From Sanchytrium tribonematis (Eukaryota): a DNA stretch of 35,218 nucleotides. The position numbers and the translations under genes are program-made. Location: assembly GCA_018985235.1 (NCBI GenBank), contig JADGIG010000038.1, forward strand, positions 1-35,218, in the 5' to 3' direction. The notes beneath the pieces were generated by a model. That model did not search any database. It saw nothing but the letters and a program-made list of their open reading frames with translations, and was not told the origin of the DNA. The stretch's first letter is position 1. Each line of letters starts with the position of its first letter. Below, one piece after another: positions 2,027-25,175 of this stretch.

Positions 2027-2593
2027 TTATTCTTTTTTTTCAATAATTTGTTTCCGTTGTGGAATAGTCTCTTGTATAAAATCCCAATTTCCATTTAAAT
2101 AAAAATTTAAAAGAATCGAGTAAACTTGATTAATTGTCAATACTGAAGATGTGGTTAAATTTACATGATCTGCTAAAGGAAGTCTAGCTGTTTGAATGTT
2201 GAGCTTGTCAGCCTTTTCTTTGCATAAATTTTTATGCCTATTTCTATCAACAATTCCACCAATTATATAAGTTTTAGTTGCATCGACTGTCTCCAATATA
2301 TTTTCAGAATCCGCTGTCAAATAAATAGCATCCGCATCAAGTATTAATTCATTTAATGGCTCTTTGTATAATTCTACATATTCAATATTCCACAATTTTG
2401 CATCCCTAATTTTCAATAAATTCCATATTTTTGGGGAACAACCAGCAACTATTAATTTGCTATTCGATTTGCTTTTCCGATTGGCAGAGTAGCAGGTTCT
2501 TACCTGATCCACCAAGGATTTGAGTTCCTTATGAGTCATGTATCTTTCAAAATCTACATCAATGCAAATTTCAAGTTGTACTTGTTGACCCAT
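2027..2593 (-). CDS. TRM10: tRNA (guanine-9-N1)-methyltransferase
   Basis: SPOUT motifs YLTADS, YIIGGIVDRNRHK, TARLPL, VLTINQV. Confidence 0.95.
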   Translation of the reverse strand: MGQQVQLEICIDVDFERYMTHKELKSLVDQVRTCYSANRKSKSNSKLIVAGCSPKIWNLLKIRDAKLWNIEYVELYKEPLNELILDADAIYLTADSENILETVDATKTYIIGGIVDRNRHKNLCKEKADKLNIQTARLPLADHVNLTTSSVLTINQVYSILLNFYLNGNWDFIQETIPQRKQIIEKKE

Positions 2594-4344: not shown

Positions 4345-5079
4345 TTATTGCTTAAATATTGAATCCTCCTCTACGCCTTGAGCGGGCACAGGTTTCTCTC
4401 TACCCAGATTTTTCTTCGAAATCTTGCGCTCGTAGACGTCTAGTTTGTGTCTGCTTATATATTCTGGATTAGAGTATAGCAATTCACCTTTGCAAGGACC
4501 ACTAAAAACTCTTAGCGGCCACAAAGTCATTCTGGGCCCAATTTCGATAAGAGTTTCCTCGTCTTTCATCTCATAGTGTCTGATCCAAATGCGTCCATCA
4601 CATAAATTAAAGTGCATAACATGGTCAATAAAAGGCTTCGTCTTTGACATTTTTGGAATCTCAAAAATATTTGAAATTAAAGATTTGACAAGCTGCAATT
4701 CTGGATTATCAAAATCTTCTGAAAAACTTAAAATCATTCGCGAATGTTTGATGCAGTTGCCGTTGAATTTCAATTCTTCTAAAGTATGAATATTAGTAAG
4801 CAAAAATTGAATTCCATAACCCAATCTATCGGCCATATACAAATAGGTTTCTTCCTTTTTTTCTTCAAGGTAAAGAAAATATTTACACTCATTCATTTCT
4901 GCTAGTTCTAAGCATTCCATGACTCGCGAACACTTTGATTCTTTAACACTGTGTGGAAGAATTCCAAGTAAACTGGTAACTAAATGTCTAGGTCTAAATC
5001 CACATTTGTTAGTGGCGACTAAAACAGATTCATAATCATTCTCGGTTCTATCATCCATGATTTTGGACATTAACCCCAT
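4345..5079 (-). CDS. BRX1: Brix-domain ribosome biogenesis protein
   Basis: NIHTLEELKFNGNCIKHSR, KPFIDHV, RIWIRHY, EIGPRMTL. Confidence 0.93.
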   Translation of the reverse strand: MGLMSKIMDDRTENDYESVLVATNKCGFRPRHLVTSLLGILPHSVKESKCSRVMECLELAEMNECKYFLYLEEKKEETYLYMADRLGYGIQFLLTNIHTLEELKFNGNCIKHSRMILSFSEDFDNPELQLVKSLISNIFEIPKMSKTKPFIDHVMHFNLCDGRIWIRHYEMKDEETLIEIGPRMTLWPLRVFSGPCKGELLYSNPEYISRHKLDVYERKISKKNLGREKPVPAQGVEEDSIFKQ

Positions 5080-5120
5080 TGTGTTGTACTTGCTCCTTCG
5101 AATTTTAAAAGTACCAAAAT

Positions 5121-6378
5121 TTATTTCTTTAGTAATCCGAAGAACGACCAGCCAGTATTATCATCTGTATTCATTACTTCGGGACTGCCAAATAGATAAT
5201 CATAAGCTAAATCGTAGAAAATAGGTTTAGAAGTACATATCGGCAACATCGGAAATCTCGACACTATAATATTGTTTGGAAAATGGCGGTCCACATTTTT
5301 GTCGATCGGGCAACCAAGGTGTGGATTTGATTTAAGAGTTCCGTCCTTCTAAGTGAACATAAGATACAAAAATTTGTTTTGCAACAATTCCGTTTTCTTT
5401 GGCTGCAAAATGTGGCGTTCTAGGTATTCCATATAGCTGTTCTATATCAGAAAATTCGATTTTTAGGCCTGAATAAGCACCTTTAGTAATGTTTGAGTGA
5501 CATACAGAGAGCTTATTCTCAAACTTCTCAAGATATAATTGCAAAGGATGATTATCTGTTATCAAGTCTTTTGCCAATATTTTAATGCTTCCTATGCGCT
5601 TTATAAATCTATGTATACTTTTACCTGCCTCAAATTCATTTTTAGAAAAATTATCTTTCAGATCCTCAACTCCCTCTATATACAGTTTTAAAAGCTGAAG
5701 GTACTGCTTTTCGAAGGAGTTCTGTTTCAATTTCTCAAGCGATCTTACAATGATACGATGAAATTGATCATACAAGCCCACTATTTTAGCCGCATCTCCC
5801 GTAAATTCCATTATTGAGAATGTTTCTGTTAACGATGCTCTGAATTTTTTGGATCCCAGCTCCATGATGTCTCCACTTGAACCCAAAGAAAAGCTTTTTA
5901 GATCCGATACAATTTCTGGCTTGGTATTTTTAAGCTGCAACTGATACAAGACTTGCTTTATAGAAATTTCACATGTCTTTTTCCAATCCTCAAAATAAGA
6001 AATAAGAGAGTCACCAATAGCTGGGTAATGTGGACCTTTAAAAAAGTTGATAGCCAGTTGAATATTAGAGAATGCTTTCTCATACAATTTAGCATACGTG
6101 CAATACAAACCAGATACACACGCAAAGTAAATCTTTTCTATATCATTCGGAGTTAGCTTGGACAATACAAGGTGCGCTTTTTTAAACTTTTTTAGCTTGT
6201 GTACTCTGTCTGAATGCATCATTCCTAGCGCAACATTTTTTTCAACTAAAAGTAGATTAGCTAAATGCGTATTATTTTTCTTTCGTTCTTTTTTTATTCT
6301 GCTTGATAAGCTTTTGGCGTATGTTTGATAATCATCGAAATGCAAATGATTGCTTCGTGACTGTGCAATAATATCCAT
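5121..6378 (-). CDS. SRP68: Signal recognition particle subunit SRP68; 2 exons (6378-5368, 5348-5121), 412 aa
   Basis: N-terminal MDI...DDYQTYAKSLSSRIKK. Removing intron 5349-5367 adds an exon missed by the ORF track, ending ...KPIFYDLAYDYL...GWSFFGLLKK*, the SRP68 C-terminal signature. Confidence 0.85.
5349..5367 (-). other. 19-nt spliceosomal intron (SRP68)
   Basis: GTATCTTATGTTCACTTAG; excision opens the conserved C-terminal exon. Confidence 0.88.
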
Positions 6379-6512
6379 AATGAAACAAGGAATCCTGACA
6401 GACAATTTTAAATCTCCTGGCTCAAAAGAATCATTTGCAATTTAAACAAATGGCATTAAGAGTCTAAAAGGTTCATTCAGGATGGAAATGTTGAGTGATT
6501 TACATTAATTTT

Positions 6513-6519
6513 TGAAACA
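6513..6519 (+). promoter_or_regulatory. TGAAACA start-proximal motif (representative copy)
   Basis: Recurs within about 25 nt of several start codons; see findings. Confidence 0.6.
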
Positions 6520-6524
6520 AGTAA

Positions 6525-7461
6525 ATGGCTTATCAACCAGCTAATAATATTGAATTGCCAACGATCAATCAAGCTCAAGATGCTTTTGCAAGACCACCTC
6601 AAAAAACTCAAAAACCATACCAGCAAATATTACCAGTATCACAAGCGAATTACGGCTGTTACGAATCTATGATGACAACGATTGGTGATTGTCTAGGTTT
6701 TTTTGGTCAAGTTCCTTGTACAGCTTTATGTTTTCCAAATCCAATGAAGCAAATATCTCAAGGCAACGTTGGACTTGTTACCAAATTTGGAAAGTGCTAT
6801 AAAATTGTTGATCCTGGGCTGCACGCCATCAATGTTGCCACTGAAAAGATACTCGCAATAGATATTCGTGTTAAGGTTGAAGAGATTCCAAAGCAGTATG
6901 TTATGACTAGGGACAATGTTGGAATTAATGTCGACTCTGTTTTATATTGGCAAGTGACAGATCCCTATGTGGCAGCTTTCTTGATTAGGGATGTGCGTTT
7001 GGCTCTTATCGAAAGAACTCAAACAACTCTGAGAACAGTCATTGGATCAAGACATATGCAAGAGTGTGTTGAAAATCGAGATATTATTGCTCAAGAAATT
7101 ATGAAAGTGGTCGGACCAAGTGCAAAAACTTTCGGTGTGAGTGTCAACAGTATTCTGATCAAAGATATAGCATTTAGCAAGGAGCTTGAAGGTTTCATTT
7201 ACTTATTTAGGAGCATTGGCAAGTGCAGCTAAGCAAAGGCGAATTGGTGAGTCCAAGGTGATCGCAGCAAGAGCCGAGGTAGAAAGTGCAAAACTCATGA
7301 GAGAAGCTAGTGATATTCTTAGAAGTCCCGCAGCCATGCAAATCAGGTTTTTAGAATCACTTCAAACGATGAGTAAGGATCCTGGCACTAAGGTCGTATT
7401 CATGCCCAAAAATTCCAGTGTGCAAGAAATTACTAACACTGAAATGTTAAGAAGACTTTGA
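6525..7461 (+). CDS. Stomatin/band-7 (SPFH) protein; 2 exons (6525-7191, 7211-7461), 305 aa
   Basis: SPFH domain (MTRDNV, ERTQTTLR). Spliced junction reads ELEGALASAAKQRRIGESKVIAARAEVESAKLMR, colinear with fungal stomatins. Confidence 0.93.
7192..7210 (+). other. 19-nt spliceosomal intron (stomatin)
   Basis: GTTTCATTTACTTATTTAG; joins two ORFs in frame. Confidence 0.92.
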
Positions 7462-7510
7462 ATTTAAATAAACTGCGTTACCATTTACCTTGTGAACTTG
7501 AAACATTAAA

Positions 7511-9471
7511 ATGAGTATTTTCGAATTAAATAATGGCATAGCTTCTCTTTTTGAAGATCGATTGCTTGTAGATAATTCTTCAGAGACACTGAATGTTGGA
7601 GCAAGTTGTGGTTGTTTTCACATGAACAAAATATTTGTAGGCACTTTCAAAGGAGAATTGGTTATTTTGTCGCCTGCCAGGCGAACAGAAAAAGTCATTG
7701 AGGCGCATAATGGGTGCGTCATAACTTGCAACTATTTTAATGACTGTATAATTACGACGGGAGAAGATGGAATGGCAAAAATGTGGTCTTCTAATGGTGC
7801 ACTTCGAGCAACACTGACAAAATCTATATTACCTATTAGAGCTGTCACATTGAATGCTAATTCCCTATTTTATGGGGTGCAAGATCGATTTTTCTCCACA
7901 GACATCTTTTCCTCTGTTAAAAAATCCTATCATGCAAATTTTATAGTTACAGCATTATTTAGTGTTGGTCCTTATCTTGTAGTCGGTGGTATAAATGGAA
8001 AACTGAAATTATTCGAAAACTTGAATCTACTGAAGGAAATCAATCTTGAGTCGAAAATCTTTTCGATTTGTTTAAATCTAGATTTGCAACTTATATACGT
8101 TGGCTTATTTAATCAGATTATGATTTTAGACCTAGCGCTCAGATCGGTCCAGAATTATACCGCAAACGGAATTGTTTATAATTTGTATAGCAAAGACAAC
8201 GGTCAAATTTATTTTATTACATCAAAAGAATGCGGTACTTTGTACTACTTTAAGCCATACTTCTCTTCAAAATTTATTGTTTCGTGTAGCGATTACTTGA
8301 CAATAGAGAATGTTTCTAGCAGCATATCACACGTCGTAGAGCATGATCCGAAGGACATTAAAAAAATCAAGTTCGGTAATGTAGTAATTCTGGTACTAAA
8401 AAACAAATTGCTGATATTCGATAATCAAGAATATATTATTGATGTTTCTTTTGAAGTACGTGATATCCAGCTGCACGATTGGTAATTTATAACTTATGAA
8501 GTGCGTTTTCCGTGTGGGATGAACTAAAAAACTGTCACATTTTCACCAACTCGGGGAAGTATCTTGGCGCATTAAGTACAGATAGCAAAATTTGGACTTC
8601 ATCCTTGAAAAGTGTTGCTTGTGTCAAAGACAACAAAATTACATTATATGATCATAATTTAAAAGAAATAGAGCATTTTATTCACAAAGTAAAGATTGAA
8701 AAGGTAATGCTCAACAATGATGGAAAAGTTCTCTTTCTAGACAGTAGCAGGGACTTGCATCTATATAATTTTAAGGATCTCAGATTCATTTCGAAAGACG
8801 TTACAGATTTTAGATGGGCAGATTCTGATGTTTTCGTTTATTGTGTTAATTCCGTGCTTCATTATCAGTTTGGAACTTATCTAATACCCGACCTTTTGCC
8901 AAAATCAAAGGTAGCGGTCAAGCTTCAATCCAATATATGTGAAATCATTTCTGTAAGTCCATCGATAGAATTTAGAATGGAGAATGGCGAAAATAAGACT
9001 TCTAGTATTCTGAGACCGCATATGATAGAATTTTTTAAACTATTGAAAAATTCCAAACTACATGAAGCTTCACGCCTTGCAGTGTTATCAAAAAAGGACT
9101 TTCTGTATGCTTGTTTATGCCAAGCAGCTATAGAGCAGAAAGACTTTGATGTCGTGCTTCTGTGTTGTACATATCTTCAGTTAAATGCTCAAACTTATTG
9201 CTTATTGAAATTTCAAAAATCTTTCGGGCTGTCATTATTAAAAGGCTCACTTGAGACATCGTTAGTGTTAAATGAATTTGAACAATACCAAAGAGAGCTG
9301 GAGGCGTTCAACTTTAGCTCGATGTTTGCGTTCTCAAGAAAATCTCCACAACACGAATCTTTGTTTGCATATTACAGGAGGCAATATCTCAAGCAGATTG
9401 GTCGCGAGGAATTTATAGATGAATACAAATCACTTGAAATCAAAACTCCAATCGAGGAGTTTGTTAAATAA
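7511..9471 (+). CDS. IFT80: Divergent intraflagellar transport protein 80 (WD40 + helical tail); 2 exons (7511-8481, 8502-9471), 646 aa
   Basis: EKVIEAHNG...TTGEDGMAKMWSSNGALRATL; C-terminal KLHEASRL, LYACL, YRRQYLKQIGREE resemble IFT80 motifs. Confidence 0.82.
8482..8501 (+). other. 20-nt spliceosomal intron (IFT80)
   Basis: GTAATTTATAACTTATGAAG; contains the in-frame stop and restores frame with ORF 8512-9471. Confidence 0.88.
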
Positions 9472-9509
9472 ATTTAAATCAATTGTTTAAGATATTTGGA
9501 AATATTTAA

Positions 9510-9514
9510 AGGAG
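9510..9514 (+). promoter_or_regulatory. AGGAG/CTCCT start-proximal motif (representative copy)
   Basis: Recurs within about 40 nt of many start codons in either orientation; see findings. Confidence 0.6.
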
Positions 9515-9524
9515 ACTCTAAGAC

Positions 9525-10181
9525 ATGGGAAATATTCGCGGAATTGGTGACGATAAAGACGAAAAGCCAGATTTGTATGTTGGAAGTGGTCAGAATGTAG
9601 TACCTCCAAGAGGCAATAGACCCCAACATTCTAACCCTTTGGTTCAGGATTTGCTTCAATCCGCAGACGAAAGACAACCAGAAGAAGCAGAGGACGTGGT
9701 TGTCCGAGAAATGGTGTTATACCAAAACGGATTTTTATTACACGAGACATTTTATCCAAATGATTCTCCAGAAGCTGAACAAGTTTTGAAAATGCTCAAA
9801 AGTGGACATGCGCCTCTTGGTTTGCTCGGAGTATCTCAAAATGAAAAGGTTGACTTAAAAACTTCTATGAAATTGAATGAAGAATATGTGCCACCATTTA
9901 AGGCTTTCAAGGGTGATGGGAATAGACTTGGGGCACCGATGCCAAAGCCGAAATCACAAACAACTAACGAACCTTTACCAAATCTCGATGCTTCGGATCC
10001 AGCAAATATGACATTGCAAATCCGAAAGAGTAATGGAGAAAGGACTTCAGTTGTTGTTACCCGTAATATTAGCTTAGATACCTTAAATCAACAATTAGGA
10101 GGAACTTTACATCATGCATTCCCAAGAAAACAAGTTGAATCTTTGACAGGATGTGATAAAGAAGTACTGTTACTGTTGTAG
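9525..10181 (+). CDS. SHP1: p47/Shp1-like Cdc48 cofactor (SEP + SHP box + short UBX)
   Basis: LYQNGF and GHAPLGLL (SEP), FKAFKGDGNRLG (SHP box), LQIRKSNG and FPR (UBX). Confidence 0.85.
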   Translation: MGNIRGIGDDKDEKPDLYVGSGQNVVPPRGNRPQHSNPLVQDLLQSADERQPEEAEDVVVREMVLYQNGFLLHETFYPNDSPEAEQVLKMLKSGHAPLGLLGVSQNEKVDLKTSMKLNEEYVPPFKAFKGDGNRLGAPMPKPKSQTTNEPLPNLDASDPANMTLQIRKSNGERTSVVVTRNISLDTLNQQLGGTLHHAFPRKQVESLTGCDKEVLLLL

Positions 10182-10281
10182 TAATAAATTAAATCCATAT
10201 ATTGGCCCAATCAGTACCCTTGTGATCCTAGCTAATTTTATTAAAAAAGTCTGAAACAATTTTACATTTTTTAAATTAACA

Positions 10282-11394
10282 ATGTCGAATGTCAAAGCTA
10301 TGAGTTTGAAAGAAGAAATATTTATTTGGTCAAAAGCTATCGAATGTTACGATAATGATCAATTGAAAGATGCCTTGTTAACATTTAAACAATTGAAAAA
10401 AACCTCGAAAGTTTATTTTAATATTGGAATAATATACCGCGTACGAGGACAAAATGAGGACGCCATCAAATCATTTACTAAGGCAACTTTATTGGATCCT
10501 TGGTTTGCTGCGGCCTATTTTATGAAAGGCGTTTGTTATTGTGAACTAGATAGGTTTAACGAAGGAGTGACAGAATTCAATGAAGCCTTGCAGAGACTAA
10601 GAGGCAATTCAGTTATTGACTATTCCCAGCTTGGATTAAATCTTGTATTAGAATCAGCTGATGTTTTACTGAATCGAGCCATATGCTATTATATGCTGAA
10701 GAAAAATACCTATGCTCGAGATGATCTAAGAGCAGCACAGGAGATTGCTCCAAATGATCATTTAGCTATAGGAATAAAGACTGACGATCTTCAGTCAGTC
10801 CCTTTTGCTTTAGCCGAGGTTGTTGAGGTTTTCGTTCCTCCTAGCAACAAAATAACTAAAGACGAAAAGGTAGACTATTTAGGGAAAAGCAAAATTATCG
10901 CTGCAGTTGAGGAAGGAGATACTTTCACAGGATTTTTAGGAAGAATGCAAAGAAGTAATTCTAGTCCCAATGTTTTTGGTAATAACATGTCTACCATATC
11001 CCAAATATCGTCAAAGTCTATTGGCAGAAGCCAAAGTAATTCTCCCCAAAAAGACAATCATCATATAATTACTAATGTGGCCACCACACCATCCATGAAA
11101 TCAGCCCCCATTTCGTTTTCTCCCACTACCCCAGTTACTCCTTCCACCCCAATTCCAAATTCTAAGGGACGGATAAAAATTAAATTTATATACCAAGGCA
11201 AGGCCAAGATGATTTTAGCTCCGGACGATGTCAGCTATGATGAACTTTTGAAAAAACTAAGGAAAAAATGTAATGCTGATATTGATATGTATTACAACAA
11301 ATCCAAGTCTTCAGATTTAGAAATTATATCCAACGAGCATGAGCTTGATATTGCGATTGATTTGGGAGAGCCTGTAGTCATTTATTGTGAATAA
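10282..11394 (+). CDS. noxR: NADPH oxidase regulator (p67phox-like; TPR + PB1)
   Basis: MSLKEEI..W..A, SKVYFNIG, LRGNSVIDYSQLGL, DYLGKSKIIAA, C-terminal PB1. Confidence 0.93.
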   Translation: MSNVKAMSLKEEIFIWSKAIECYDNDQLKDALLTFKQLKKTSKVYFNIGIIYRVRGQNEDAIKSFTKATLLDPWFAAAYFMKGVCYCELDRFNEGVTEFNEALQRLRGNSVIDYSQLGLNLVLESADVLLNRAICYYMLKKNTYARDDLRAAQEIAPNDHLAIGIKTDDLQSVPFALAEVVEVFVPPSNKITKDEKVDYLGKSKIIAAVEEGDTFTGFLGRMQRSNSSPNVFGNNMSTISQISSKSIGRSQSNSPQKDNHHIITNVATTPSMKSAPISFSPTTPVTPSTPIPNSKGRIKIKFIYQGKAKMILAPDDVSYDELLKKLRKKCNADIDMYYNKSKSSDLEIISNEHELDIAIDLGEPVVIYCE

Positions 11395-11447
11395 ACGTAT
11401 TTTTTTCGTCTCAGAAATTTTAATTGTTTCAGATCATTCTCAATTTT

Positions 11448-12864
11448 ATGTCCAAGCGAGTTATCGATATAGACGAGGAATTGAATAACCTAGGAAATAA
11501 AATTGGAAATTTGCGAATACAGCAGGGCGGCCTCTATGATCTGGAAAATATTAGACACTGCCTTATCCATGGACATTCAATTTCAGAAGCATTGGTAGAG
11601 TTGCGCAAGTATCTTTGCACGTGTAATACTAACGCGATAGATACAATACTGAATTTAAATATACTGGAAATCCTATGGAAATATGCTCGTTCTAATATAC
11701 AAACGGACGTTTACGAAATTACGTGGATATTTACAAATTTAAGTGCAGGAAATGAAATACAGACATCTCAACTAGTGCAGAATGGTATAATTGAGTTAAT
11801 GGCTGAGCTATTAGCTTCCCCCAGCGAAGATGTAATTGTCCAAGCTTTGTGGTGTCTTGGAAATATTAGCGGAGATCATAGGGATTACAGAGAAAGAATT
11901 CTTGCATGTTTGGCGCCCTATCACGGTATGTCTTACTTTGTCTCTAGGACAAGTTTACAATCAGAGTTTCCTGTTAAAGTTTTTTCATGGGTCTTATCAA
12001 ATCTATGCCGCTTGAAGCCCAATAGTGACTATTGGAATTTGGTGGTTAATGACTTATCTTTTTGTGTATACAATCTCGATTTATTTAATTCTAATGATGA
12101 CCAAACCATAATAGATTTTTGCTGGGCGCTTACCAGATGTTTACACTCTGTAAGTATGGTTTATAGGCGGCAGCTTGTAACAATAGAGCTCGTAGATGGT
12201 TTGTTTGGTATAGTGAAGCGATTTAAGTTTCCAAATGTTTTGGTTCCTGTCTTTAGGGTCCTTACTAATATCGTTGCGGGAGACGATACGGAAACAAAAA
12301 TGGTGATTCAAAATAATTATTTGTCTCAAATATTGAAATTTTTGGAAACAGAAAATGCTTCTTTACTAAAAGAGTGCCTTATGTGCCTTTCAAATATTGC
12401 TGCAAGTAATTCACATGGAGAATCATTACATGATACCGATATTCTTTTAAAAATTTTACAATTGTTGAGTAGCGAGTTTACATCTGATCCAATTAAGATG
12501 GAATGCTTGTGGATATTAAGCAACTGTATTTCGATGAAGGAAGAGATTCTTCAGTAATTCGCTCTCACATAGTCATTTAATTTTAAATAATTTAATCCAA
12601 ATTTTAATTTGCTGTTTGAATATTCCTACTCTGTCTAAGAAGGCAATAGATGCTTTATATTTTGTTGAAATATGTTCTGACAAGCTGTTCTATAATTTAA
12701 AAGACAAAATTGGCGAAGTATCGAATTCATTAGAATTATTTTCGCATGAAAGTTCTTCCATTCAACAAAGATCTCAACAACTTTTACACTCGATAAAAAA
12801 CAGATCTTTTAAACAGGACTCTGTATGGCAAATCGAAACAGAATTAGAAAATATGGTGCTTTAG
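11448..12864 (+). CDS. Importin-alpha-like armadillo repeat protein; 2 exons (11448-12553, 12573-12864), 465 aa
   Basis: ARM WxxxN motifs (WIFTN, WCLGNISGD, WVLSNLCR, NIVAGDD, WILSN). Confidence 0.85.
12554..12572 (+). other. 19-nt spliceosomal intron (importin-alpha-like)
   Basis: GTAATTCGCTCTCACATAG; removes a stop and joins ORF 12616-12864 in frame. Confidence 0.88.
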
Positions 12865-12890
12865 TGATATGATTATTTAATAAATATACC

Positions 12891-13097
12891 TTACAATTTT
12901 AATTCTGTCCGGAGTTCTGCCTTTTCTAGATCTGTAATCATTCTTGCCAAAATCGATGGTTGGATTTTCTTAGAATTACCTTCTAAACTTAACTCTAGAT
13001 TTTCTTTCAGTTGCATTCTTACATCCTCAACAGAGTCAGGTAATATGTCCAATTTTTGAATCTTGACTGGTTTCTTTTTCTTAAGCTTGAAAGACAT
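12891..13097 (-). CDS. Small hypothetical protein (68 aa, Lys-rich N-terminus)
   Basis: ATG start preceded by the AGGAG motif; fills a gap much larger than typical intergenic spacing here. Confidence 0.55.
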   Translation of the reverse strand: MSFKLKKKKPVKIQKLDILPDSVEDVRMQLKENLELSLEGNSKKIQPSILARMITDLEKAELRTELKL

Positions 13098-13238
13098 GTA
13101 TCAAAATCTCCTCAGAATTAAAACCGGCCGACTCATTCTTTGGCAAATGGTGGTGTTATTATACATGATTATTTAGTCGGTCAGTCAGATCAATACATTG
13201 CCTACAATAAGAATTGCAACTCTGAAACTTAATTTTAA

Positions 13239-15862
13239 ATGGAGTCAAATCCATTTGATGACGACCAACAAATAGAGGATCCTTTCATTGATGATAGCTC
13301 TGATACCACAGACTATCAGTCGAGTGTCCCAAAATTACTAAATTTTCCGATGCCCAGATTATTAGATCCAATTGCACACACCATTAAAAGTTCTTTCAAG
13401 ACCACAGAGCAAATATATGATTCAGTTTGTAGTGGAAACTACTTGGTAGCATGCCATCTTTCTAAGCTGTCAGTCTATGACTTACTGACCTCAAAACTGG
13501 TATCGAATTTGCCATTTCCATTTGAAGGATCATCCACATTATGTTTCTGTCCTGAATTTGAGGACCCATCACTATTTGTGTTGGTTGGATTTAGCACAGG
13601 AGAACTTTGGATTGTCGATATATTGGGTAATTCACTGGAGAGTGAAAGGAAAAGAGTTTCAAATTACTCTAATGTTGAGTTATTAGGATGCGTTGTTCTG
13701 CAAAAAAGATCCATTACAAGAAGCCCATTTAAAAAATTATATCAAAAGGGCACATTTGTAATCGCAATTGATGCATACGGAACTATATTTTATTGGGATA
13801 AGGCTGATGTAGGACTTTTAGATAGGGACCCCAACATTGTTAAAATACCACTAACTCCATCTACATTGTCACTAGATAGTTCTGGCTATAATCTTTACTT
13901 TACGAATGAAACCTCCCACTGTTATTATCTGAATCTTCAAGTTGGAACTGCTTCTTTACTTACTTTTGGTGTAGATTCAAATCTAAACAATTCCACAGAA
14001 TGTCTCAACTCCAAAGGGAGAGCCATTTCCTTATGTTTAGGTGAATTTGATGGCAACCAGGCAATTTTTGTAGGGCACGATGATGGATTTATAAGTGTAT
14101 TTGATCAATCATTTAAGCTTATAAAAGTAGTTCATTTTTCAAATTATTCTATAACAACATTAAAGTTTAGACCATCTTGCTGTTATATATCTCAAGATTT
14201 AGATTTTAGGCCTGTTTTGGTAGTATGTTTGAAAACAGGTGATTATTTTCAAGTCATTGTAGATCATGAATTTAGCATGATAACTTATGGATATCCCCAT
14301 AAAAGTGAGGATTTGAAAGTTAACAACTCGATTTTACTTTTTCAACAGATTGATATTAATCCACAAGCAGACATTTCAACGAAATTGTGTGTCGACTTTG
14401 TGATACTATCTCTGAAAGAAAATACATTTCAGATTGATGTCACCTCATCCGATTTATCTTCTTGGACAAAAAGAACCGTTTTAAAAGAGCAGAAGAGCAA
14501 TATTAGTGGTAATCGCAAAATCAAGATACGAATCGTGTCTTGGAATATGGACTCAAGCAAACCAACTGAGCTGGATCGGCCAAGTGTTCGAAATAAGAAA
14601 AAAAGAAATCGACTTAGTTCTTTAAGCCCATTTAGAAAACAAAAGTTGGACAGTTCTTCAATTGAGTCTCTTAGTACTAGTCCTGTTGGGAGCACTGACT
14701 TATTTCCATCTCATATTTTTGATGACGATCCCATTGTTGCTCTGTTGAAAAGCAAATCGTTTGATAGTCCTGACATTTTTGTTGTTGGCTTTCAAGAAGT
14801 TGTTGATTTGGAATCCAAAAGGGTTCACGCCAGTAATCCATTTCTTACGTAGAGTCGCTTTTTAAAAAAAAGGAGCAGAAGACGCCTCATGACATTGAAG
14901 ATCGCGCATATAAAGATTGGCTTTATAGCATTGAAGCAGGTATCGAAGAAATATACTCTAATTCATTCAAGCTACTAAAATCACAATATTTGGTCGGTCT
15001 TTATTTACTTGTATTCATTAAAGAAGAATTGAAGCCCTATGTGCAACATTTTGAAATTCAAGAGCTTAAAACAGGTTTTAAAGGTTTACATGGTAATAAG
15101 GGTGCTTTGTGCGCCCGTATGATTTTATTCGATACTAGTATATCATTTATAGTGGCACACTTAGCGGCTGGTCAAAAGCATACACAGGATAGAAACAAAG
15201 ATGCCAAGCATATTATCAATAATGTTGCGTTTTCAAATGTAGCCATTCCCACGGTATACCTTGACCACAGTGGCTTTAAACTCTGGGATCAAGACACCTT
15301 GTTTTTCTTTGGGGATTTAAACTATCGCATCGAATTGACGAGAGATCAATGTGAGCAAAATATTAGATCGCAGAATTATATAGAATTGCTCAAAAACGAT
15401 CAACTTAATGAAAATCGATCGAAAAATCCTAGTTGCGTCTTGAGGCACTTTCAAGAGGCACCAATTAAGTTTTTACCGACGTACAAATATGATCCATATA
15501 CCATTAATTATGATTCTAGTGAGAAAAAAAGAATACCAGCTTGGTGTGACAGAATATTATATCGAGGTCAGGTTGATGTCATTTCATATGACAGATTAGA
15601 AAGGCCATTTAGTTCGGATCATAGAGCTATTTTTGGAGAGTTTGTGATTGACTGTCAAGGATTAGAAATGGACCAATTGTTAAAATTAATTGAAGGTTAT
15701 ACCACTCTGGAAAACAAAATTCAAAGATTAGAGTTTATAAATACTGTCCGATATACCTTGGACAGTTTTGGAATACAAAGTGAAGTCGCAAATTATGTCA
15801 AGCAGCCAAATATGAACTTGTTTCAATTCCTCCAATCACAAAAGTTGAATTCTCGTTCATAA
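13239..15862 (+). CDS. WD40-containing inositol polyphosphate 5-phosphatase; 2 exons (13239-14832, 14853-15862), 867 aa
   Basis: SWNM, PDIFVVGFQEVV, GNKG, HLAAG, FFGDLNYRI, PTYKYD, PAWCDRILY, SDH; WD40-like N-terminal half. Confidence 0.93.
14833..14852 (+). other. 20-nt spliceosomal intron (5-phosphatase)
   Basis: GTAATCCATTTCTTACGTAG; junction reads KRVHAKSLFKKK in frame to the catalytic exon. Confidence 0.9.
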
Positions 15863-15883
15863 TCTCCTCAGTTTTAGACTTTT

Positions 15884-16165
15884 ATGAATTCGCAAGCAGA
15901 TACTTCGCGAATCTCGCAAACCATTGAAATCGAGGAACAGCATCGAACCATTAGGGTAGAGGTAATGGAGGAAACTGAAAGAAAAGTGCAATTTGCTGAT
16001 GATGTTATTGACAATGAAAATTTAAACCGAAAAAAATCGAAAGTTTGCTGTATCTACAGGAAGCCACACAACTGTGACCAATCTGAAAGCGAATCAGATT
16101 ATAGTGACGAGGAATTGCAAAAAAACGGCTATGAAAGAAAACCAAAGTATAAACATTCTCATTAA
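15884..16165 (+). CDS. YPI1: Protein phosphatase 1 inhibitor-3
   Basis: KVQF (RVxF) followed by DVIDNENLNRKKSKVCCIY. Confidence 0.92.
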   Translation: MNSQADTSRISQTIEIEEQHRTIRVEVMEETERKVQFADDVIDNENLNRKKSKVCCIYRKPHNCDQSESESDYSDEELQKNGYERKPKYKHSH

Positions 16166-16167
16166 AT

Positions 16168-17160
16168 TTATTTGAAGTCAAATGTGGATTGACTCTGTAA
16201 TACAGAATCCTTTCTTGTAAACGATGGCTTTGGGGCAGTTATATTTTGCAGTATATCTCTTGCGATTGCGAAATCGATATTGTCTTCATTCTCCAGCGCA
16301 TCAAATATATTTAAAAGCTGCTCATCAATTACAGATGGTGCTATATTCACAACAGAAGATAGATATTTTAAAAGTTTTGAGTATTCGTTCCCACTTCGGC
16401 TAGATGTATTGGTCAGTTGGGTGCTCTGATACCGTATAATTTTATCTCGATATAGAAGCTCATAATATTGTTCCTTTACAGTTTGTTCATCATTATAAGT
16501 CTGAGACAATTGATGTTGGGCAAATGATATGCCCTTAGTCAACTCAACTTTTGCTGTTTCTAATCGGCGAGCTCTAAAGTTGTCCCACTCATAATTAAAT
16601 CTTTGACTTTCGGTGTCTGACACAATTTTTACAATAGGAACTAGCAATTCTTGTAAGTTATCAAGAGTTTCTTGAATTAAATCCTTGCATTTACACAATT
16701 CTTGAATATGTTTATGAAATGTGCTCTCAAGCAAGTTAGCGCATCGAGTAACAACATCACCAGCTGTATCTGGCGACTTGAGAAATTCATCAGTTGTTTC
16801 CTTATATAACTCAGACAGCCTCTGATCATTTCGTAATAAATCGAATGTATCTTCTTGTTCGGGAAAAATTACTTCAGAATAAAAATGTTTTAGCACAGGT
16901 AACTTGATAGGTTTTAAATTAGGCCGTAGTCGCTCAGGTTCGATTTCCTCGCTGTCTTTATTCCCTGATTTGAATTGTGGAAAGTAATGATTAAAAGCTG
17001 ACTCAAAATGAAAAAGCCCAGCTGATCGAACTAATTTAATTATTTCTGGGCCATCTCTTATTAAGCCTTCTGTATCGTTTTTCCTAATGGAGTCTTCTAG
17101 TGCATCAAAGCAAGGCGAACAGTCGCCCGATAGTATACTCTTTTTCAAAAGTTGGAACAT
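16168..17160 (-). CDS. Hypothetical helical protein (330 aa)
   Basis: Long ORF with ATG and an AATAAA-embedded stop; no family recognised. Confidence 0.7.
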   Translation of the reverse strand: MFQLLKKSILSGDCSPCFDALEDSIRKNDTEGLIRDGPEIIKLVRSAGLFHFESAFNHYFPQFKSGNKDSEEIEPERLRPNLKPIKLPVLKHFYSEVIFPEQEDTFDLLRNDQRLSELYKETTDEFLKSPDTAGDVVTRCANLLESTFHKHIQELCKCKDLIQETLDNLQELLVPIVKIVSDTESQRFNYEWDNFRARRLETAKVELTKGISFAQHQLSQTYNDEQTVKEQYYELLYRDKIIRYQSTQLTNTSSRSGNEYSKLLKYLSSVVNIAPSVIDEQLLNIFDALENEDNIDFAIARDILQNITAPKPSFTRKDSVLQSQSTFDFK

Positions 17161-17177
17161 TCTCGGCCTATTTCAAG

Positions 17178-17888
17178 TTAAATTTTATTTAGAGACTTTA
17201 TCAACTCGACTACCTGAGAACCTGTAGATAGAGTTTCTTGGGACCTTCTGAAAAAATTAAGAATAGTTACATGCATTTGGCGGAAACCTTTGGTCACATT
17301 CAAAGGTAATTCTTCAATTTTAGGCTCGTCCATTTTTGGCGGGTTGTACGCTGGTTTGAATATCCAGGATTTCTTGCATTGGTTTACAAACTCGATTTCA
17401 TACTGTCGTGCTGCTTCTTTTGATTCGTCATAATATTCTTGCTCGCTTTCCAACAAGATATTTTTAACCTCATCCCCAATTGCGATATGTTTGGCGAACT
17501 TCCATTGTAAATTAAATGGAGGAAGGGTTTTTTGCTCCTTAAAATTGTGCTTTATCATTTCTTTTAATTCTTCAGCGGTATTTGCATTTGCGATTCTTAC
17601 ATCCAATCCACTTTTTTGAAATATCGGCAATATAAATGATTTGACATATTTTTCTGACCTGTATGTCGTATTATCATCAAAACTCGGTAAGATGTAAAGG
17701 CAGACTCTTGTTGGTAGAGATTCAATCGGTAAAGGATCATTCGCAAATTCTTCGACTTCAGCCAATAGCGTCAGACAAATTTGAGATTGTTTATACTGGT
17801 CGTATTTTAGACCAGCTAATATAGACCCAGCTACTCCAAAGAAGGCAATAGTCTTCCTACTAGGCATTTTTTTCGGCAAGAAATTCAT
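17178..17888 (-). CDS. TIM54: Mitochondrial TIM22 complex subunit Tim54
   Basis: KMPSR + TM + YD, PL...LPTRVCLY, FILPIFQKSGLD. Confidence 0.8.
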   Translation of the reverse strand: MNFLPKKMPSRKTIAFFGVAGSILAGLKYDQYKQSQICLTLLAEVEEFANDPLPIESLPTRVCLYILPSFDDNTTYRSEKYVKSFILPIFQKSGLDVRIANANTAEELKEMIKHNFKEQKTLPPFNLQWKFAKHIAIGDEVKNILLESEQEYYDESKEAARQYEIEFVNQCKKSWIFKPAYNPPKMDEPKIEELPLNVTKGFRQMHVTILNFFRRSQETLSTGSQVVELIKSLNKI

Positions 17889-17977
17889 TGTAAAATTTTC
17901 AAGGAGAGTAAGTCACTATTTATTTTCTGGTCTCATATAATTCGCTTACTCTGGATGATTTCTATTGATCTTTTTAA

Positions 17978-19246
17978 TCAATTTGAATTAACAAACTCAA
18001 CAATCTTATTTAATGCTTCGTTTGCTTCCTGAAGGGGATAACATTGAAATAAATGTACAACATTGTTGTACACTTGATGTATTGCAGGAGCATCCTGTTC
18101 AACTAATTTTTTATGCAAATGCTCGTGGTCAGAAAGCAGCGTCTCAAGTGATCCTGACTGAATTAGAACTGGTGGGAATCTATTCAATATACCAAAGACT
18201 GGAGAAAAAATGGGATCAGAAAGATGCTGGGCGCCATCCAAATCCAAATTTATCCCACAGTAGAAACTCAGAAGTTTTTCAACTTGAAGATCTTTATCCA
18301 AGTAGTCTATATCTTTGTTGAAATCCCACGAAAGGCCTGTACAGCGCAAATTTGACCAAGGGCTTATCAAAACCACGCATTTGGGTAGTGGGATGCGATT
18401 TTCAATCGAACTTATTAAAAGACTCAGCATTACATTCCCACCTGCGGAATCAGATAAAAACCATATATCCGAGGATGCTATTCCTAAAAATTTCACCATA
18501 AACCAGTATGAGTCTAAGCAATCTACGAGAGATTGAGGATATTGTTTCTCCGGTAGGATACCATAACGGACATTGCAAATTCCGTGGTCTGGGAATTTAG
18601 ATTGAATCTTTGGTAGTAAATGAACATTGTGCAGTAAAAATGCACCACCTGGACAATAAAAAATCCACTTTTGAACTTCATTGATAGTTTTACCTTTAGG
18701 AACCAATAATTGGGTAGTGAATTCCATTTCAGAAGGACTAGAATGAAAAATGTATTCTTGCTGATCCCAATAAATATCTTTTCCTAGATACTTGGTAGCA
18801 TCAGGAACTTCCCAATACTCACAAGGTATACCTGTGGGAAAGTTTTGGGGTGTATACTTGACTCTTTTACCGGATCTAGTCATTTGATAATAAGTACTTC
18901 TGGAATCCAATCGTCCCAACTGCACTTCAGCAACGATATCCATTGTACATTTGATATAAACTTCCGAAAGAAAATCAATTGGTCTACTTACAAGGCGAAA
19001 TCTGTGTATTGAAAAGTAAGGATTTGCCAGCAATGATCTAATGGCTCTTGATGCTGCAAATAAGTGTACATTCATATTTTTTGCACCAACTGGAATCTTA
19101 TCTCTGAAAAAGTTGTAATAGCCTTTGATCATATGAAACCCCATAGAAGCAATAAGAGCAATAAAAGGAATTACATCAGTACTTCTAAAATTCATTTTTT
19201 GGATTATTTCATGTATCAGCTTATAGATTGGAAGCCACCCAATCAT
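17978..19246 (-). CDS. HSL-family alpha/beta hydrolase (esterase/lipase), paralog A, intronless
   Basis: PGGAF, SDSAGG, LISPW, E.L..D, VHLFQ. ATG at 19246 chosen (19195 is possible). Confidence 0.88.
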   Translation of the reverse strand: MIGWLPIYKLIHEIIQKMNFRSTDVIPFIALIASMGFHMIKGYYNFFRDKIPVGAKNMNVHLFAASRAIRSLLANPYFSIHRFRLVSRPIDFLSEVYIKCTMDIVAEVQLGRLDSRSTYYQMTRSGKRVKYTPQNFPTGIPCEYWEVPDATKYLGKDIYWDQQEYIFHSSPSEMEFTTQLLVPKGKTINEVQKWIFYCPGGAFLLHNVHLLPKIQSKFPDHGICNVRYGILPEKQYPQSLVDCLDSYWFMVKFLGIASSDIWFLSDSAGGNVMLSLLISSIENRIPLPKCVVLISPWSNLRCTGLSWDFNKDIDYLDKDLQVEKLLSFYCGINLDLDGAQHLSDPIFSPVFGILNRFPPVLIQSGSLETLLSDHEHLHKKLVEQDAPAIHQVYNNVVHLFQCYPLQEANEALNKIVEFVNSN

Positions 19247-19277
19247 GAAAGGTTCCGATATTTCGAACACCAGCAAT

Positions 19278-20508
19278 TTAAGAATTGTGCGATTTATTGA
19301 CAAAGGATCTGATTCTCTCAAAAGCTAACCCAGACTCTGCATAAGGGAAACATTGAAATGCGTGAGTCATTCTGTCATAAATGTGATGTTCAACATCGTT
19401 CCCAGCCTTCTTTAATTTTTCAAATAAAACTACATTGTCATCAATAATTGCTTCGTAAACCGCCGACTGCATTAAAATAGGTGGAAATCCACTCAGGTCA
19501 CCATTCACAGGCGAAAAATAGTGATGATCCAGTATTGCTGGATCTTCTTTCAAATTGCATCCAGAGTACAGAGACAGTAGAGGCTCAATCTGAAGATCAG
19601 AATCCAGAAAATCAATATTTTTGTGATTCTTCCATGATTCTCCTTTACAAGTCAAATCCGACCAGGGACTAACTAGCACGACACATCGTGGATTAGGTAG
19701 ATTATTTTGCTTTATGCTCAACATTAAATTTAAAAGGACATTACCTCCCGCTGAGTCTGCGAAAAGTATAATGTTTTCGGGCTCAATATTGTAATAGCTT
19801 ATTAGAAAATTGTAAGTATCAAGCGCATCTATTAAGGAATTAGGAAACGCTTTCTCTGGGACCAGCCCGTACCTAAGATGGCAAATACCAAAATTGGGAA
19901 AATTTTCATGTAAATTTGGTATGAAATGTACATTATGCATCAAAAAGGCACCTCTAAATAAAATAAAAGTACCCTGGAACATACAGAATCCATTTCTTAC
20001 ACTCTCTTATTGTTTTTCCCTTTGGCACAAAAAATTTGCTCGAGAATGTCAAAGGCTTTGGGCCTAAGTGAAAAGACCGTTCTTCCTCATGGTTATATTG
20101 TGGCTTTCCAAAAATTTCTTCTACAGTTGGAACTTTCCAATGACGGCAGGCTATTGAAGTTTTTGAATAGTCTGGTACAAACGTACTTACTCTACCAACT
20201 TTTTTTTCTGTATAATACATTTCTCCATCGTCGTTTCTTCCTAAAATAATTTCACTGGCAATATTAAGACTCCAGTTGACTCGGACCCAGGTAAAAAAAT
20301 CTGGTACTGAGTTCAGAATTCTAAACCGATGAATTGTAAAATGTTCATGGTCAAACGCTACTCTTATTCCTCTCGCTAAACTATAAGCAAAAATATCAAC
20401 ATTACTTGATTTAGCACAAACGTATCCAAATGCGTGTCGTGTAAATCCTGAGAGGACTTCCCATACTATATGTGTTAGGATTATGAACGTTGGGAGCACA
20501 TTCTTCAT
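19278..20508 (-). CDS. HSL-family alpha/beta hydrolase, paralog B; 2 exons (20508-19973, 19953-19278), 403 aa
   Basis: Spliced YVPGGAF, ADSAGG, LVSPW, THAFQ; colinear with paralog A. Confidence 0.88.
19954..19972 (-). other. 19-nt spliceosomal intron (hydrolase B)
   Basis: GTACTTTTATTTTATTTAG; excision gives PGGAF as in the intronless paralog. Confidence 0.93.
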
Positions 20509-20694
20509 TTTTATAAATGGAGAAGTGAGGCAGAAAATGGGTTTCAAGAAGTTCACCGAAAATAGAAAATTGATTGATGCAAACGCATAAGTTTATGTAG
20601 ATATCAATCGGATTTAATTTTTTTGTTAGCTAATTCTAGGAGTTTTATCTGCTTATCAGTCAAATTTTTTTCAGACTTTAAAATCTAAATTAAT

Positions 20695-21246
20695 TTATGG
20701 TACCTTTTGCATTCCTTTTAGTGCTTCTTCCGATTTATCAACTAGGTAGGCACGACAGAATAGCTCTAATTGGACTTCTTTTTCTTTAACAACATTTCCT
20801 AATTCAATAAGATACAATGTATTGAATGGATCAAGCACATGAAGCTGCTCTAGACAGTAGAGTATCAGAGATTCGCGCCTTGAAACTTTTGGATCCTCTT
20901 TGAGTAATTCATAAAATTTTAGAAATCCATTTTTGTCACCTCTAAATGTATGGGTCACTTGAGTCATTTTTTCTACCCATTTGTTGTCATTTTTGTCAAA
21001 AAGACACTGAACCACTTCTAAATAGGCTTCTATATTTGAAGGATTTTGTTTAATTAACAATTTGCAAATTTCAAGAGCTTTTTGAGTCTCCTTAGAAATT
21101 CGAAGAGTTTTCGCCTCCATTAGCTTTAGTTTATAAGAGGAAGCTGGCGCATTTCTTCTAAATTTCTCAAGTGACTCTTCCGCAGATTTTGTATTCTTCA
21201 ATTTAATAGCCTGATTAAAATCAGAAACTAATGTTGGTCCACTCAT
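20695..21246 (-). CDS. EMC2: ER membrane complex subunit 2-like TPR protein (shortened)
   Basis: QNPSN, FRGD and YCLEQLHVLDPFNTLY resemble EMC2 motifs (F.GD.EAW, FCLEEL...PHN). Confidence 0.65.
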   Translation of the reverse strand: MSGPTLVSDFNQAIKLKNTKSAEESLEKFRRNAPASSYKLKLMEAKTLRISKETQKALEICKLLIKQNPSNIEAYLEVVQCLFDKNDNKWVEKMTQVTHTFRGDKNGFLKFYELLKEDPKVSRRESLILYCLEQLHVLDPFNTLYLIELGNVVKEKEVQLELFCRAYLVDKSEEALKGMQKVP

Positions 21247-21396
21247 ATGTTTGCTACAAGGGGCATTTTTAATGATATATATAGTGTTTGCTCATATTTC
21301 TGAAGATTAAAGGACGACATTTTAATTGGGACTGATATCACTACCTTCAACCTATAGTATTTCAAGTGTAATTTTTTGTGTTTGAATCAAGGAGAA

Positions 21397-21801: not shown

Positions 21802-21844
21802 ATTATATAAATTTTTAATTGAAACAAGCTTTCAAAAAATTTAA

Positions 21845-22946
21845 ATGTCAGTTCTGGTAAATTCACTCAAGCAAAAGCTAACAACTGGCTCGCAGCCCAG
21901 CTTATCAACATCATTATCAAATGAATTTCCAGTTGATATGGATAATAATGAACTTATCCAATTAAGAAGATCTCGAAAGGTTGCATTGGGTGATTTTGAC
22001 GTAATGAGGACTCTTGGGACAGGTAGTTTCGGAAGAGTGCATTTGGTTAAAGTTAAATCTACTGGGAAATTTTTAGCAATGAAAGTTTTAAAAAAAGTAG
22101 AGGTCGTTAAACATAAGCAAGTTGAGCATACGCTAAATGAAAAGAATATACTAGAGTCAATTTATCATCCATTTCTTGTGAATCTATATGCTGTTTTTCA
22201 AGATTATGGAAATCTTTATGTTGTTATGGAGTATATTTGCGGTGGGGAGCTCTTCTCCTACTTGAGAAAATCTCAGAGATTTCCCAACCAAGTGGCAAGA
22301 TTTTACGCCGGCGAAGTACTTTTGGCATTCGAATATATGCATTCCAAAGACATCATTTATCGGGATTTAAAACCTGAGAATTTACTGATTGATAAAAATG
22401 GAAATATTAAAATTACTGATTTTGGATTTGCCAAAGTGGTACCCGACGTAACTTGGACGTTGTGTGGTACTCCAGATTATTTGGCCCCAGAAATAATTCA
22501 GTCCCGCGGTTATGGAAAGGCTGTTGACTGGTACGCATTAGGCGTATTAATTTTTGAAATGCTAGCTGGATATCCACCGTACTATTTATTCATTTAGATT
22601 TTATGATGAAGACCATGTCAGAATGTACGAGAAAATTCTACAAGGCAGAATCAAATGGCCTTCTCATTTTGATCCTGCTGCTAAGGATTTGTTGAAAAGA
22701 CTTTTGACAGCCGATTTGTCAAAAAGATTCGGAAATTTAAAGGCCGGTTCCAAAGACATAAAAGCGCACAAATGGTTTCAAGGCTTGGATTTTGCAATAT
22801 TGATAAAGTGCAAGGTCCCTGCGCCTTATATCCCACCTGTTAAAGGTGATGGTGATACCAGTCAATTTGACACTTATCCTGAGGAAACCGAGCCTTATGG
22901 TGTAGCTACTCGAGATCCTTATGCTGAATTATTTAAAGATTTTTAA
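21845..22946 (+). CDS. PKAC: cAMP-dependent protein kinase catalytic subunit; 2 exons (21845-22578, 22598-22946), 360 aa
   Basis: [34 protein letters not shown], spliced GYPPFYDED, C-terminal FKDF. Confidence 0.97.
22579..22597 (+). other. 19-nt spliceosomal intron (PKA)
   Basis: GTACTATTTATTCATTTAG; excision restores the conserved GYPPF. Confidence 0.95.
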
Positions 22947-22971
22947 TAAATCCCTACAAATTTTTTGTAAC

Positions 22972-23358: not shown

Positions 23359-23382
23359 ATTAAATGTGAAACAGGGCAGAAA

Positions 23383-24286
23383 ATGCTTTTCGGAAGTTTT
23401 GTTCTGCTTTCTCTCGGTGGGACTTTCTGGTACACCAACATTAAAATATTGGAAATGTATTTTTCGGTTGAAAGAGTCTTGGATTCTCAATTATATTTAC
23501 AGGAATTAACATTATTAGCTACATTACCGATTTCAGTCATTCTTATGAATTTGGAACCATACTATTGTTTATTACTTTTCGTATATATTTTATTTTGTAA
23601 AAATTCATTACTGCAACTAATTAATTTAATTATCAGAGCTATTCGGATGCCTGTCCATTTTGTTGACGTAATATTTGGTGATTTTTTAACTTCGTATGCT
23701 AAAGTTTTCTCGGACATGACACCCTCTGTCGGTTTGAAGCCTTGGATTACATGGTATTTTTTATTGATTAAGCATTCCTTACATTATACGAGCCAAGCAA
23801 TGCTTGGTGGAATATATATACAATAGAAAACGTAGTCAAATCTTTAATTTTTTTAAATACCTCTCAGCAATTCCCGTAATATTTACAAGTTATGTCATTG
23901 TACTGGGAAATATCAAATTTTCAGAGAGTCCCATGGTGGGATTATGGTTCGGATTTGTAATTGTAAATAGCATTTTCACCTTCTTTTGGGATATTAAATA
24001 CGACTGGGGGCTATTGGAAAAAGACCACGCTTTCATAAGAAGGCAACAGATATTTCCCAAATATTGCTATTGGATTGCCGTTTTCATAGATTTTGTAATT
24101 AGATTTTTTTGGCTTTTGAGCTTTTTATTCACTCAATGGAATTTATGGGATGCCAATATATCTTTCGCATTCGAATGTTTGGAATTATTTAGAAGATGGA
24201 TGTGGGTGTTTCTAAGAATAGAAAAGGAATTAGTATTTAGGGCAAGTTATCTGGATCCTACGGTAAAAAGAAAATTGACCAATTAG
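23383..24286 (+). CDS. ERD1: EXS-domain membrane protein without SPX; 2 exons (23383-23753, 23773-24286), 294 aa
   Basis: FVDVIFGDFLTSYAK, spliced IPYIIRAKQCL, NFFKY, WDIKYDWGL, ELFRRWMWVFLRIE. Confidence 0.85.
23754..23772 (+). other. 19-nt spliceosomal intron (ERD1)
   Basis: GTATTTTTTATTGATTAAG; restores the EXS P..IR..QC motif. Confidence 0.9.
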
Positions 24287-24289
24287 TAT

Positions 24290-25000: not shown

Positions 25001-25175
25001 TTGATGGGTCAAACTTAGTGGCCTCAAAATTTAAATTGGATTTTCAAAACAAAATATAAAAGACAAATATATCCGCTTATCCATATTGGTTTTGAAGAAA
25101 TTCACCACTTTTAAGTGAAAATTTGAAGAGAATTTTAAAAAATTAAGGAGAATTTGCAAAACTAGGATATATTCT

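Follow-up and report, generated by a model that had tools for sequence, protein, structure and literature searches.

Gene content of the window

The stretch of DNA analysed here, called the window throughout, is 35,218 nt long and its source group is the sanchytrids, fungi that parasitize algae. It is about 35% GC and gene-dense, with about 36 genes over 94% of its length by our gene list, and Pfam searches find housekeeping genes of fungal type in it (Table 1). The closest named homolog of its stomatin is that of Amoeboradix gromovi (82% identity), and the A. gromovi ortholog of its PKA catalytic subunit is 95% identical. Trees were built from 25 stomatin rows and from 19 PKA rows (one row excluded by the tool). 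In both, the proteins of the window, A. gromovi and their relatives form one branch, with support of 100/100 and 100/99, respectively. Hence the identities and the tree placement indicate a sanchytrid other than A. gromovi.

Compaction is extreme, and genes abut or overlap, as in the head-to-head pair at about 30817-30818. The names NoxR and Bem1 given to two of the proteins are those that we presume from their domain order. The IFT80-like gene, with a 20-nt intron inside, and the enkurin gene are both cilium-related and lie in a lineage described as losing much IFT. Intron-split genes such as the IFT80-like one could affect tallies of gene loss.

Table 1. Features of the window, with strand and with the basis of assignment or the putative branch adenosine
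Feature	Position	Strand	Basis or putative branch A
19-nt intron, phase 0, SRP68-like gene	5349..5367	-	branch A 5354
Stomatin/Band_7 gene, two exons	6525..7461	+	Pfam PF01145, homologs
19-nt GT-AG intron, phase 1, stomatin/SPFH gene	7192..7210	+	branch A 7205
20-nt intron, phase 2, AAG acceptor, IFT80-like WD40 gene	8482..8501	+	branch A 8496
TPR protein, NoxR/p67phox-like	10282-11394	+	Pfam domains
19-nt intron, phase 2, ARM-repeat (importin-alpha-like) gene	12554..12572	+	branch A 12567
20-nt intron, phase 1, inositol 5-phosphatase-type gene	14833..14852	+	branch A 14847
19-nt intron, phase 2, alpha/beta hydrolase (esterase) gene	19954..19972	-	branch A 19959
Candidate 19-nt intron, phase 0, near TPR gene end	20685..20703	-	branch A 20690
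19-nt intron, phase 2, PKA catalytic subunit gene	22579..22597	+	branch A 22592
19-nt intron, phase 2, AAG acceptor, EXS-family gene	23754..23772	+	branch A 23767
Enkurin gene	24290-25003	-	Pfam
SH3-PX protein, Bem1-like	29435-30421	+	Pfam domains
Tyrosinase-domain gene	32812-34170	-	Pfam
5S rRNA gene, cut by window end, beside syntaxin gene	35144-35218	+	Rfam

A contig of run X1 was compared with positions 5000-24300, outside which the window has none of the nine introns. No indels or joints were found, and the three single-base differences (6523, 16581, and 17020) all lie outside the introns; the contig is possibly the window's own source and hence not independent of it.

Short inserts that interrupt reading frames

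The preliminary description had quoted eight introns, and all of them are present as given; six measure 19 nt and the other two 20 nt. The candidate near the end of the TPR gene, a ninth, also fits their motif; it was found using that motif and is thus no independent test. Removal of the insert restores a long reading frame at all nine loci, and at three of them (stomatin, PKA, and esterase) homology fixes the boundaries exactly. The spliced stomatin, a frame of 305 aa, is ungapped for 12 aa upstream and 12 aa downstream of the junction when aligned with each of 116 non-sanchytrid homologs; the window's own record and those of three sanchytrids that read through the intron were set aside from the 120 matches listed. 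Likewise, the spliced PKA is ungapped at its junction against 14 of 14 homologs (16 matches listed minus two), and the spliced hydrolase shows no gap over the junction when aligned with its adjacent intronless paralog. The hydrolase paralogs stand in tandem (17978-20592, reverse strand), one with the intron and the other without it at the same codon, which implies that its gain or loss postdates the duplication.

Homology is too weak to place the boundary in the SRP68-like, IFT80-like, ARM, EXS, and TPR genes. The SRP68-like insert separates 358 from 75 codons, a 22-nt variant being equally in frame, and exon 2 matches the SRP68 C-terminus weakly (E 0.45). The IFT80-like gene (7511-9471, forward strand) has weak IFT80 Pfam matches in its exon 2, and its intron is the sole GT solution that unites 326 and 323 codons; the ARM-repeat intron is similarly the sole solution uniting 376 and 97 codons. 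Splicing of the 5-phosphatase gene joins 531 and 336 codons, with longer in-frame alternatives present, and PF22669 is matched at positions 12-44 before the break and 44-287 after it. In the EXS gene both halves match PF03124, the motif spacing is 28 aa against 44-104 aa in 39 of 149 homologs, and the record of a relative (P0151) likewise holds the second half only. The TPR candidate is the least supported of the nine: it matches the motif and lengthens the frame by 26 codons, and its exon 2 is without a Pfam match.

A search for frame-joining GT..AG segments that ignored the motif returned 22 rows and recovered seven of the eight loci, so the motif is not merely a product of choosing the introns by it. 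The EXS locus at 23754 was dropped from it because the unspliced frame runs for 24 codons and hits the filter. Three other clusters (22902, 17168, and 32524) were rejected, as they had fused separate genes or used a non-coding frame. Two in-frame 24-nt matches to the motif (4464-4487 and 10541-10564) were judged from their sequence to be coding. Introns of 18 or 21 nt that contain no stop leave the frame intact and could escape detection among the nine found in these 35 kb.

The same design is seen in the relatives. Their database records are raw open reading frames that run into the intron, and hence their introns can be decoded from the protein tails. Eight tails were decoded, omitting P0122 and P0142 as repeats of P0003 and P0124; the control, the window's own record P0123, returns the true 19 nt. 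P0124 gives a strong case of 20 nt, the 9 residues expected of its exon 2 being recovered by the decoding (score 54 vs 3), P0003 gives 19 nt (15 vs 0), P0004 gives 20 nt weakly (8 vs 2), and P0140 and P0141 give 19 nt on the assumption that the stop codon ending them represents the TAG acceptor. The tails of P0002, P0121, and P0139 display the donor alone. All 14 sized introns, nine in the window and five in the relatives, are therefore 19 or 20 nt long, within the 2-4 nt range and below the 25 nt that define a tiny, fixed-length class. In the five sized relatives the codons force a pyrimidine at -9 and -5 in every case, A at -6 in four (those of P0004 allow other bases there), and T at -8 in two. 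G occupies +5 in two relatives (P0121 and P0141).

The PKA break falls at the same codon in the window, in A. gromovi (P0139), and in P0124, P0140, and P0141, with differing insert sequences. The stomatin relatives P0002, P0003, P0004, and P0121 have introns at four different positions within about 65 codons, and P0002, P0003, and P0121 read through the window's intron position without an insert; intron positions thus turn over within the group. The DNA of the relatives was sought in JGI metagenomes, where 78 pattern matches reduced to two weak, unrelated loci, in GTDB genomes (0/17 and 0/54), and in IMG/VR (0/37).

The breaks, seen here in DNA, might instead be errors of the assembly, lesions of pseudogenes or sites of frameshifting, and the EXS homology is compatible with a small indel. 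Such a reading is very improbable and already largely refuted, given that exact removal of 19 nt yields ungapped alignments, that the PKA break recurs at an identical codon in A. gromovi and three relatives with inserts that differ, and that every break is GT..AG with a common internal motif. Minor-class (U12-type) introns have the consensus RTATCCTT at the donor and TCCTTAAC at the branch. This class was rejected, as the donor columns +4 to +8 are variable and the U12 branch word is absent from the introns. The GT...AG ends, and the restoration of the protein in nine of nine frames, three of them exact by homology, are those of the U2 type. Hence the inserts, each 19-20 nt long, are probably genuine, intron-defined spliceosomal introns of the U2 type, with a yUnAy motif to which U2 is predicted to bind and with the predicted branch A at -6.

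The motif before the acceptor and its predicted use

All eight introns of the preliminary description have a pyrimidine at -9, T at -8, A at -6, and a pyrimidine at -5, with T at -3 in six and A in two (six TAG and two AAG acceptors) and A at +3 in seven of the donors and T in one, exactly as it had stated. Over the nine introns, YTNAY with A at -6 is found in every one, against 6 of the 353 other GT..AG 19/20-mers on both strands of the window, of which 109 (31%) have A at -6. Among 200,000 sets of shuffled interiors, none had YTNAY at a shared offset, whichever it was, and 0.0245% had an A column that was invariant at any position. The statement that the acceptor is never CAG holds as a count for the eight, but is not significant (P = 0.24 with the C content of the introns, 0.18 with that of the window), and with P about 0.2 the absence of CAG was rejected as a signal. 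Similarly, the lack of a polypyrimidine tract, also claimed there, stands for the segment downstream of the branch but not for the intron as a whole, as the interiors are 53-55% T and positions +5 and +7 are pyrimidines in 9/9. G makes up about 4% of the interiors and is found at +5 in none of the nine donors, and the acceptor is the single AG of each intron.

Length and motif are insufficient to define an intron, and something more must be read, since two coding-strand decoys, 2125-2143 (reverse strand, 19 nt) and 5599-5618 (reverse strand, 20 nt), match GTA..YTNAYNAAG inside continuous frames. These are Trm10-like and SRP68-like, and splicing of the decoys would shift them. The extra cue is perhaps the pyrimidine content of the loop, as the decoys have 5 and 6 purines there and the real introns 2-5. 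There is also a hint that intron-like 19/20-mers are depleted from coding strands, where 1 was found and 300 synonymous shuffles lead one to expect 5.5 (P 0.003, in one cell of the 16 tested). In the same shuffles 25/26-mers were likewise low (P 0.047), 16/17-mers were not, and the count of YTNAY alone (2 vs 5.3 expected, P 0.073) was not significant. An asymmetry of decoys between sense and antisense strands (1/179 vs 10/156) was discarded as confounded by strand composition, and the synonymous shuffle took its place. A further 19-nt GT..AG segment with YTNAY and a CAG end lies at 6462-6480 (forward strand), separated by 44 nt from the stomatin start downstream of it. This segment may be an intron of the 5' UTR, in which case it would be a CAG exception, but it is purine-rich and has an internal AG.

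In the standard register, positions -9, -8, -7, and -5 face U2 GUAGUA around a bulged A. With this standard sequence, used in place of the sanchytrid's own, pairing is predicted at -9, -8, and -5 in nine of nine introns and at -7 in two. The motif equals the ordinary yUnAy pattern, which is the human branch-point consensus (PMC2367711), so no altered U2 is needed. The distance from the putative branch to the AG is fixed, as the preliminary description proposed, with A at -6 in 9/9 and a lariat loop of 14-15 nt, and the near-contact of 5' site and branch footprints that it foresaw is consistent with this loop. An invariant distance with no pyrimidine tract downstream, found in nine of nine, is the arrangement of a fused branch and 3' splice site, if the putative branch is the one used.

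The motif abuts the AG, and might alternatively be an extended 3' splice-site word for U2AF-like proteins, comparable to the TTTCAG of C. elegans, with the branch at another or a variable A. Positions -6 and -5 are conserved in C. elegans (PMC2483917), and most of the introns have other A residues (e.g., at -10 in 5/9). This is unlikely, since the columns without variation coincide exactly with the ones predicted to pair with U2 GUAGUA around the bulged A, no second A column is invariant, and a branch farther upstream would make the loop shorter than 14 nt.

With the branch A at -6, the preferred reading, splicing could proceed as follows. BBP/U2AF and then U2, through GUAGUA, would bind the motif, -7 remaining mostly unpaired as in humans. 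The acceptor would be the first and only AG, 4 nt beyond the branch A; in yeast, Slu7 is dispensable when the distance from branch to 3' site is 9 nt or less (PMC10158995). The donor, with little signal beyond GTA and no G at +5, is probably picked by its distance from the branch, as the GT 13-14 nt upstream of the branch A. In human early complexes about 50 nt are required between the 5' site and the branch (PMC6692369). As the loop is far below this, the assembly of U1 and U2 would have to differ in order or strain; their binding would be sequential or strained. The core machinery, like that of heterotrich ciliates, is probably conventional for the most part. Unspliced RNA would be frameshifted and cleared by NMD.

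Splicing factors of a relative and comparison with known systems

The spliceosome was surveyed in the relative A. gromovi, rather than in the window's own genome, through its eggNOG sheet of 3,755 rows (PMC8371127 supplement). It lists Prp8, SF3B1, Prp40, U2AF1, U2AF2, U1-70K, U5-40K, and Snu13, BBP as two adjacent ORFs, U1A/U2B'', Luc7, Cwc25, Yju2, Isy1, Prp17, and Dbr1, as well as Prp5, Cwc22, helicases of the Prp2, Prp16/22, and Prp43 types, Cactin, and Upf1. Among the 3,755 rows none was found for Slu7, Prp18, U1C, SF3b14, Prp39, Smu1, and SPF45, and the KOG number of Prp16 was absent as well. The searches used the name, K12819 and KOG2560 for Slu7, the name, K12817 and KOG2808 for Prp18, K11095 and KOG3454 for U1C, KOG0114 and K12833 for SF3b14, and KOG1258 and K13217 for Prp39, identifiers that we take to be the right ones. 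The annotation covers about half of the proteins at a BUSCO completeness of 92%, so the absence of Slu7, Prp18, U1C, SF3b14, and Prp39 is a lead only. Moreover, the ORFs were called without an intron model, so that short, split or divergent genes drop out.

The preliminary description had suggested checking such factors for loss, and the outcome is divided: U2AF2, BBP, and U1-70K are present, and Slu7, Prp18, and U1C were not found in the sheet. Its remodelled spliceosome is unsupported as stated, as the motif is the standard yUnAy and more than 20 spliceosomal proteins are listed for A. gromovi. A reduced spliceosome, with most proteins and U1 lost, is not what the sheet describes, since U1-70K, U1A/U2B'', Luc7, Prp40, U2AF, and BBP are listed.

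A stronger form of the idea adds to the explanation given above and is compatible with it: the introns would be real and the spliceosome remodelled, having lost Slu7, Prp18, U1C, SF3b14, and Prp39 and counting from the branch to both ends. In its favour are the seven factors with 0 rows in the 3,755-row sheet, the 14 of 14 sized introns of 19 or 20 nt, and the lack of G at +5 in nine of nine donors. Against these stand a half-annotated, 92%-complete genome with ORFs called ignoring introns, the listing of more than 20 further spliceosomal proteins, U2AF2, BBP, and U1-70K among them, and the heterotrich ciliates, which splice introns of 15-16 nt with a largely intact core (PMC13685798). Such remodelling is conceivable, though rather doubtful. 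A double ruler with factor loss may be pictured, since the spacing from the putative branch is always 4 nt to the acceptor and 13-14 nt to the donor, and a joint lack of Slu7 and Prp18 would fit the short branch-to-AG distance. With equal reserve, sanchytrids might have thousands of introns of 19-20 nt, shorter than all others in Fungi. Their spliceosome would then be a double ruler anchored at the branch, one that has kept U1, U2AF, and BBP and lost the Slu7-Prp18 module with U1C and SF3b14. If true, this would be a natural experiment on the factors dispensable for a minimal-distance intron.

The size class of 19-20 nt in fungi is new, apparently unreported in the literature searched; the yUnAy consensus was already known and the -6 geometry published for Yarrowia and Stentor. 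The literature searched, subscription papers being outside its scope, held no description of sanchytrid introns, the sanchytrid genome paper has 'intron' once, in the title of a reference, and the available text of PMC6349667, PMC8476143, and PMC4435813 mentions none shorter than 22 nt in a fungus. Both published sanchytrid proteomes came from TransDecoder on genomic contigs (sanchytrid genome paper), and the public records P0001, P0002, P0123, and P0139 stop within introns or shortly after them. With 0.25 introns per gene (9 in 36 genes), many sanchytrid proteins would be cut short or divided, and the gene-loss tallies for the phylum may be affected.

Among fungal relatives, Encephalitozoon cuniculi also has short GT-AG introns, 37 in total and of 22-76 nt (PMC3629993), with the branch consensus CTAAYTT (PMC2483917 Table 1). 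It differs in strict donors and a severely reduced spliceosome, with no U1 identified in the available accounts, whereas the introns of the window are shorter and far denser and have weak donors, and U1 proteins are listed in its relative A. gromovi. In E. cuniculi an AG directly after the branch consensus would place the A at -6. The window introns, below the 22-nt minimum of that species, would be an independent fungal origin of ultrashort introns. A study of 2026 that deals with the shortest introns of animals names ciliates, microsporidia, and dicyemids as the known exceptions (PMC13644364).

Fused branch and acceptor introns are described in Yarrowia, Trichomonas, and Giardia (PMC2483917) and in Spironucleus (PMC6679479), all of which share with the window a branch anchored to the AG and the absence of a 3' pyrimidine tract. 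The spacer is 4-5 nt in Trichomonas, Giardia, and Spironucleus, unlike in the window. Yarrowia lipolytica, with TACTAAC followed by 2 nt and AG, has the A at -6, but its introns are long (median 204 nt) and its ACTAAC consensus is strong (PMC2483917). The same -6 in such long introns points to a limit set by exon ligation and not by intron size. The window would add one more lineage that settled on a branch A at -6 and would support a geometric floor for exon ligation, whatever the intron length.

In the size class of the window, the nucleomorph of Bigelowiella natans has introns of 18-21 nt, for which a caliper model was proposed, but no discernible branch A in the text available (PMC6009652); as the branch motif is readable in the window, the lariat geometry is testable here. 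Mikrocytos, with introns of 16-17 nt, is close in size, but its spliceosome has 17-19 proteins (PMC10245619).

A close parallel, drawn already in the preliminary description, is Stentor, and it is borne out: the branch A at position 10 of 15 or 11 of 16 is -6, in introns of 15-16 nt with most spliceosomal proteins kept (PMC9505925). The heterotrichs (Stentor coeruleus and Blepharisma) resemble the window in near-fixed length, AU-richness, GTA donor, branch A at -6 (predicted in the window), and intron density, about 0.26-0.50 per gene (PMC13685798) against 0.25. Their spliceosome is largely intact, as the annotation of A. gromovi suggests for that relative of the window. They differ in introns of 15-16 nt, of which 15 is a multiple of three, a loop of 10-11 nt, and a weak branch consensus, whereas the window, from an unrelated lineage, has introns of 19-20 nt, no multiple of three, a loop of 14-15 nt, and a clear yUnAy.
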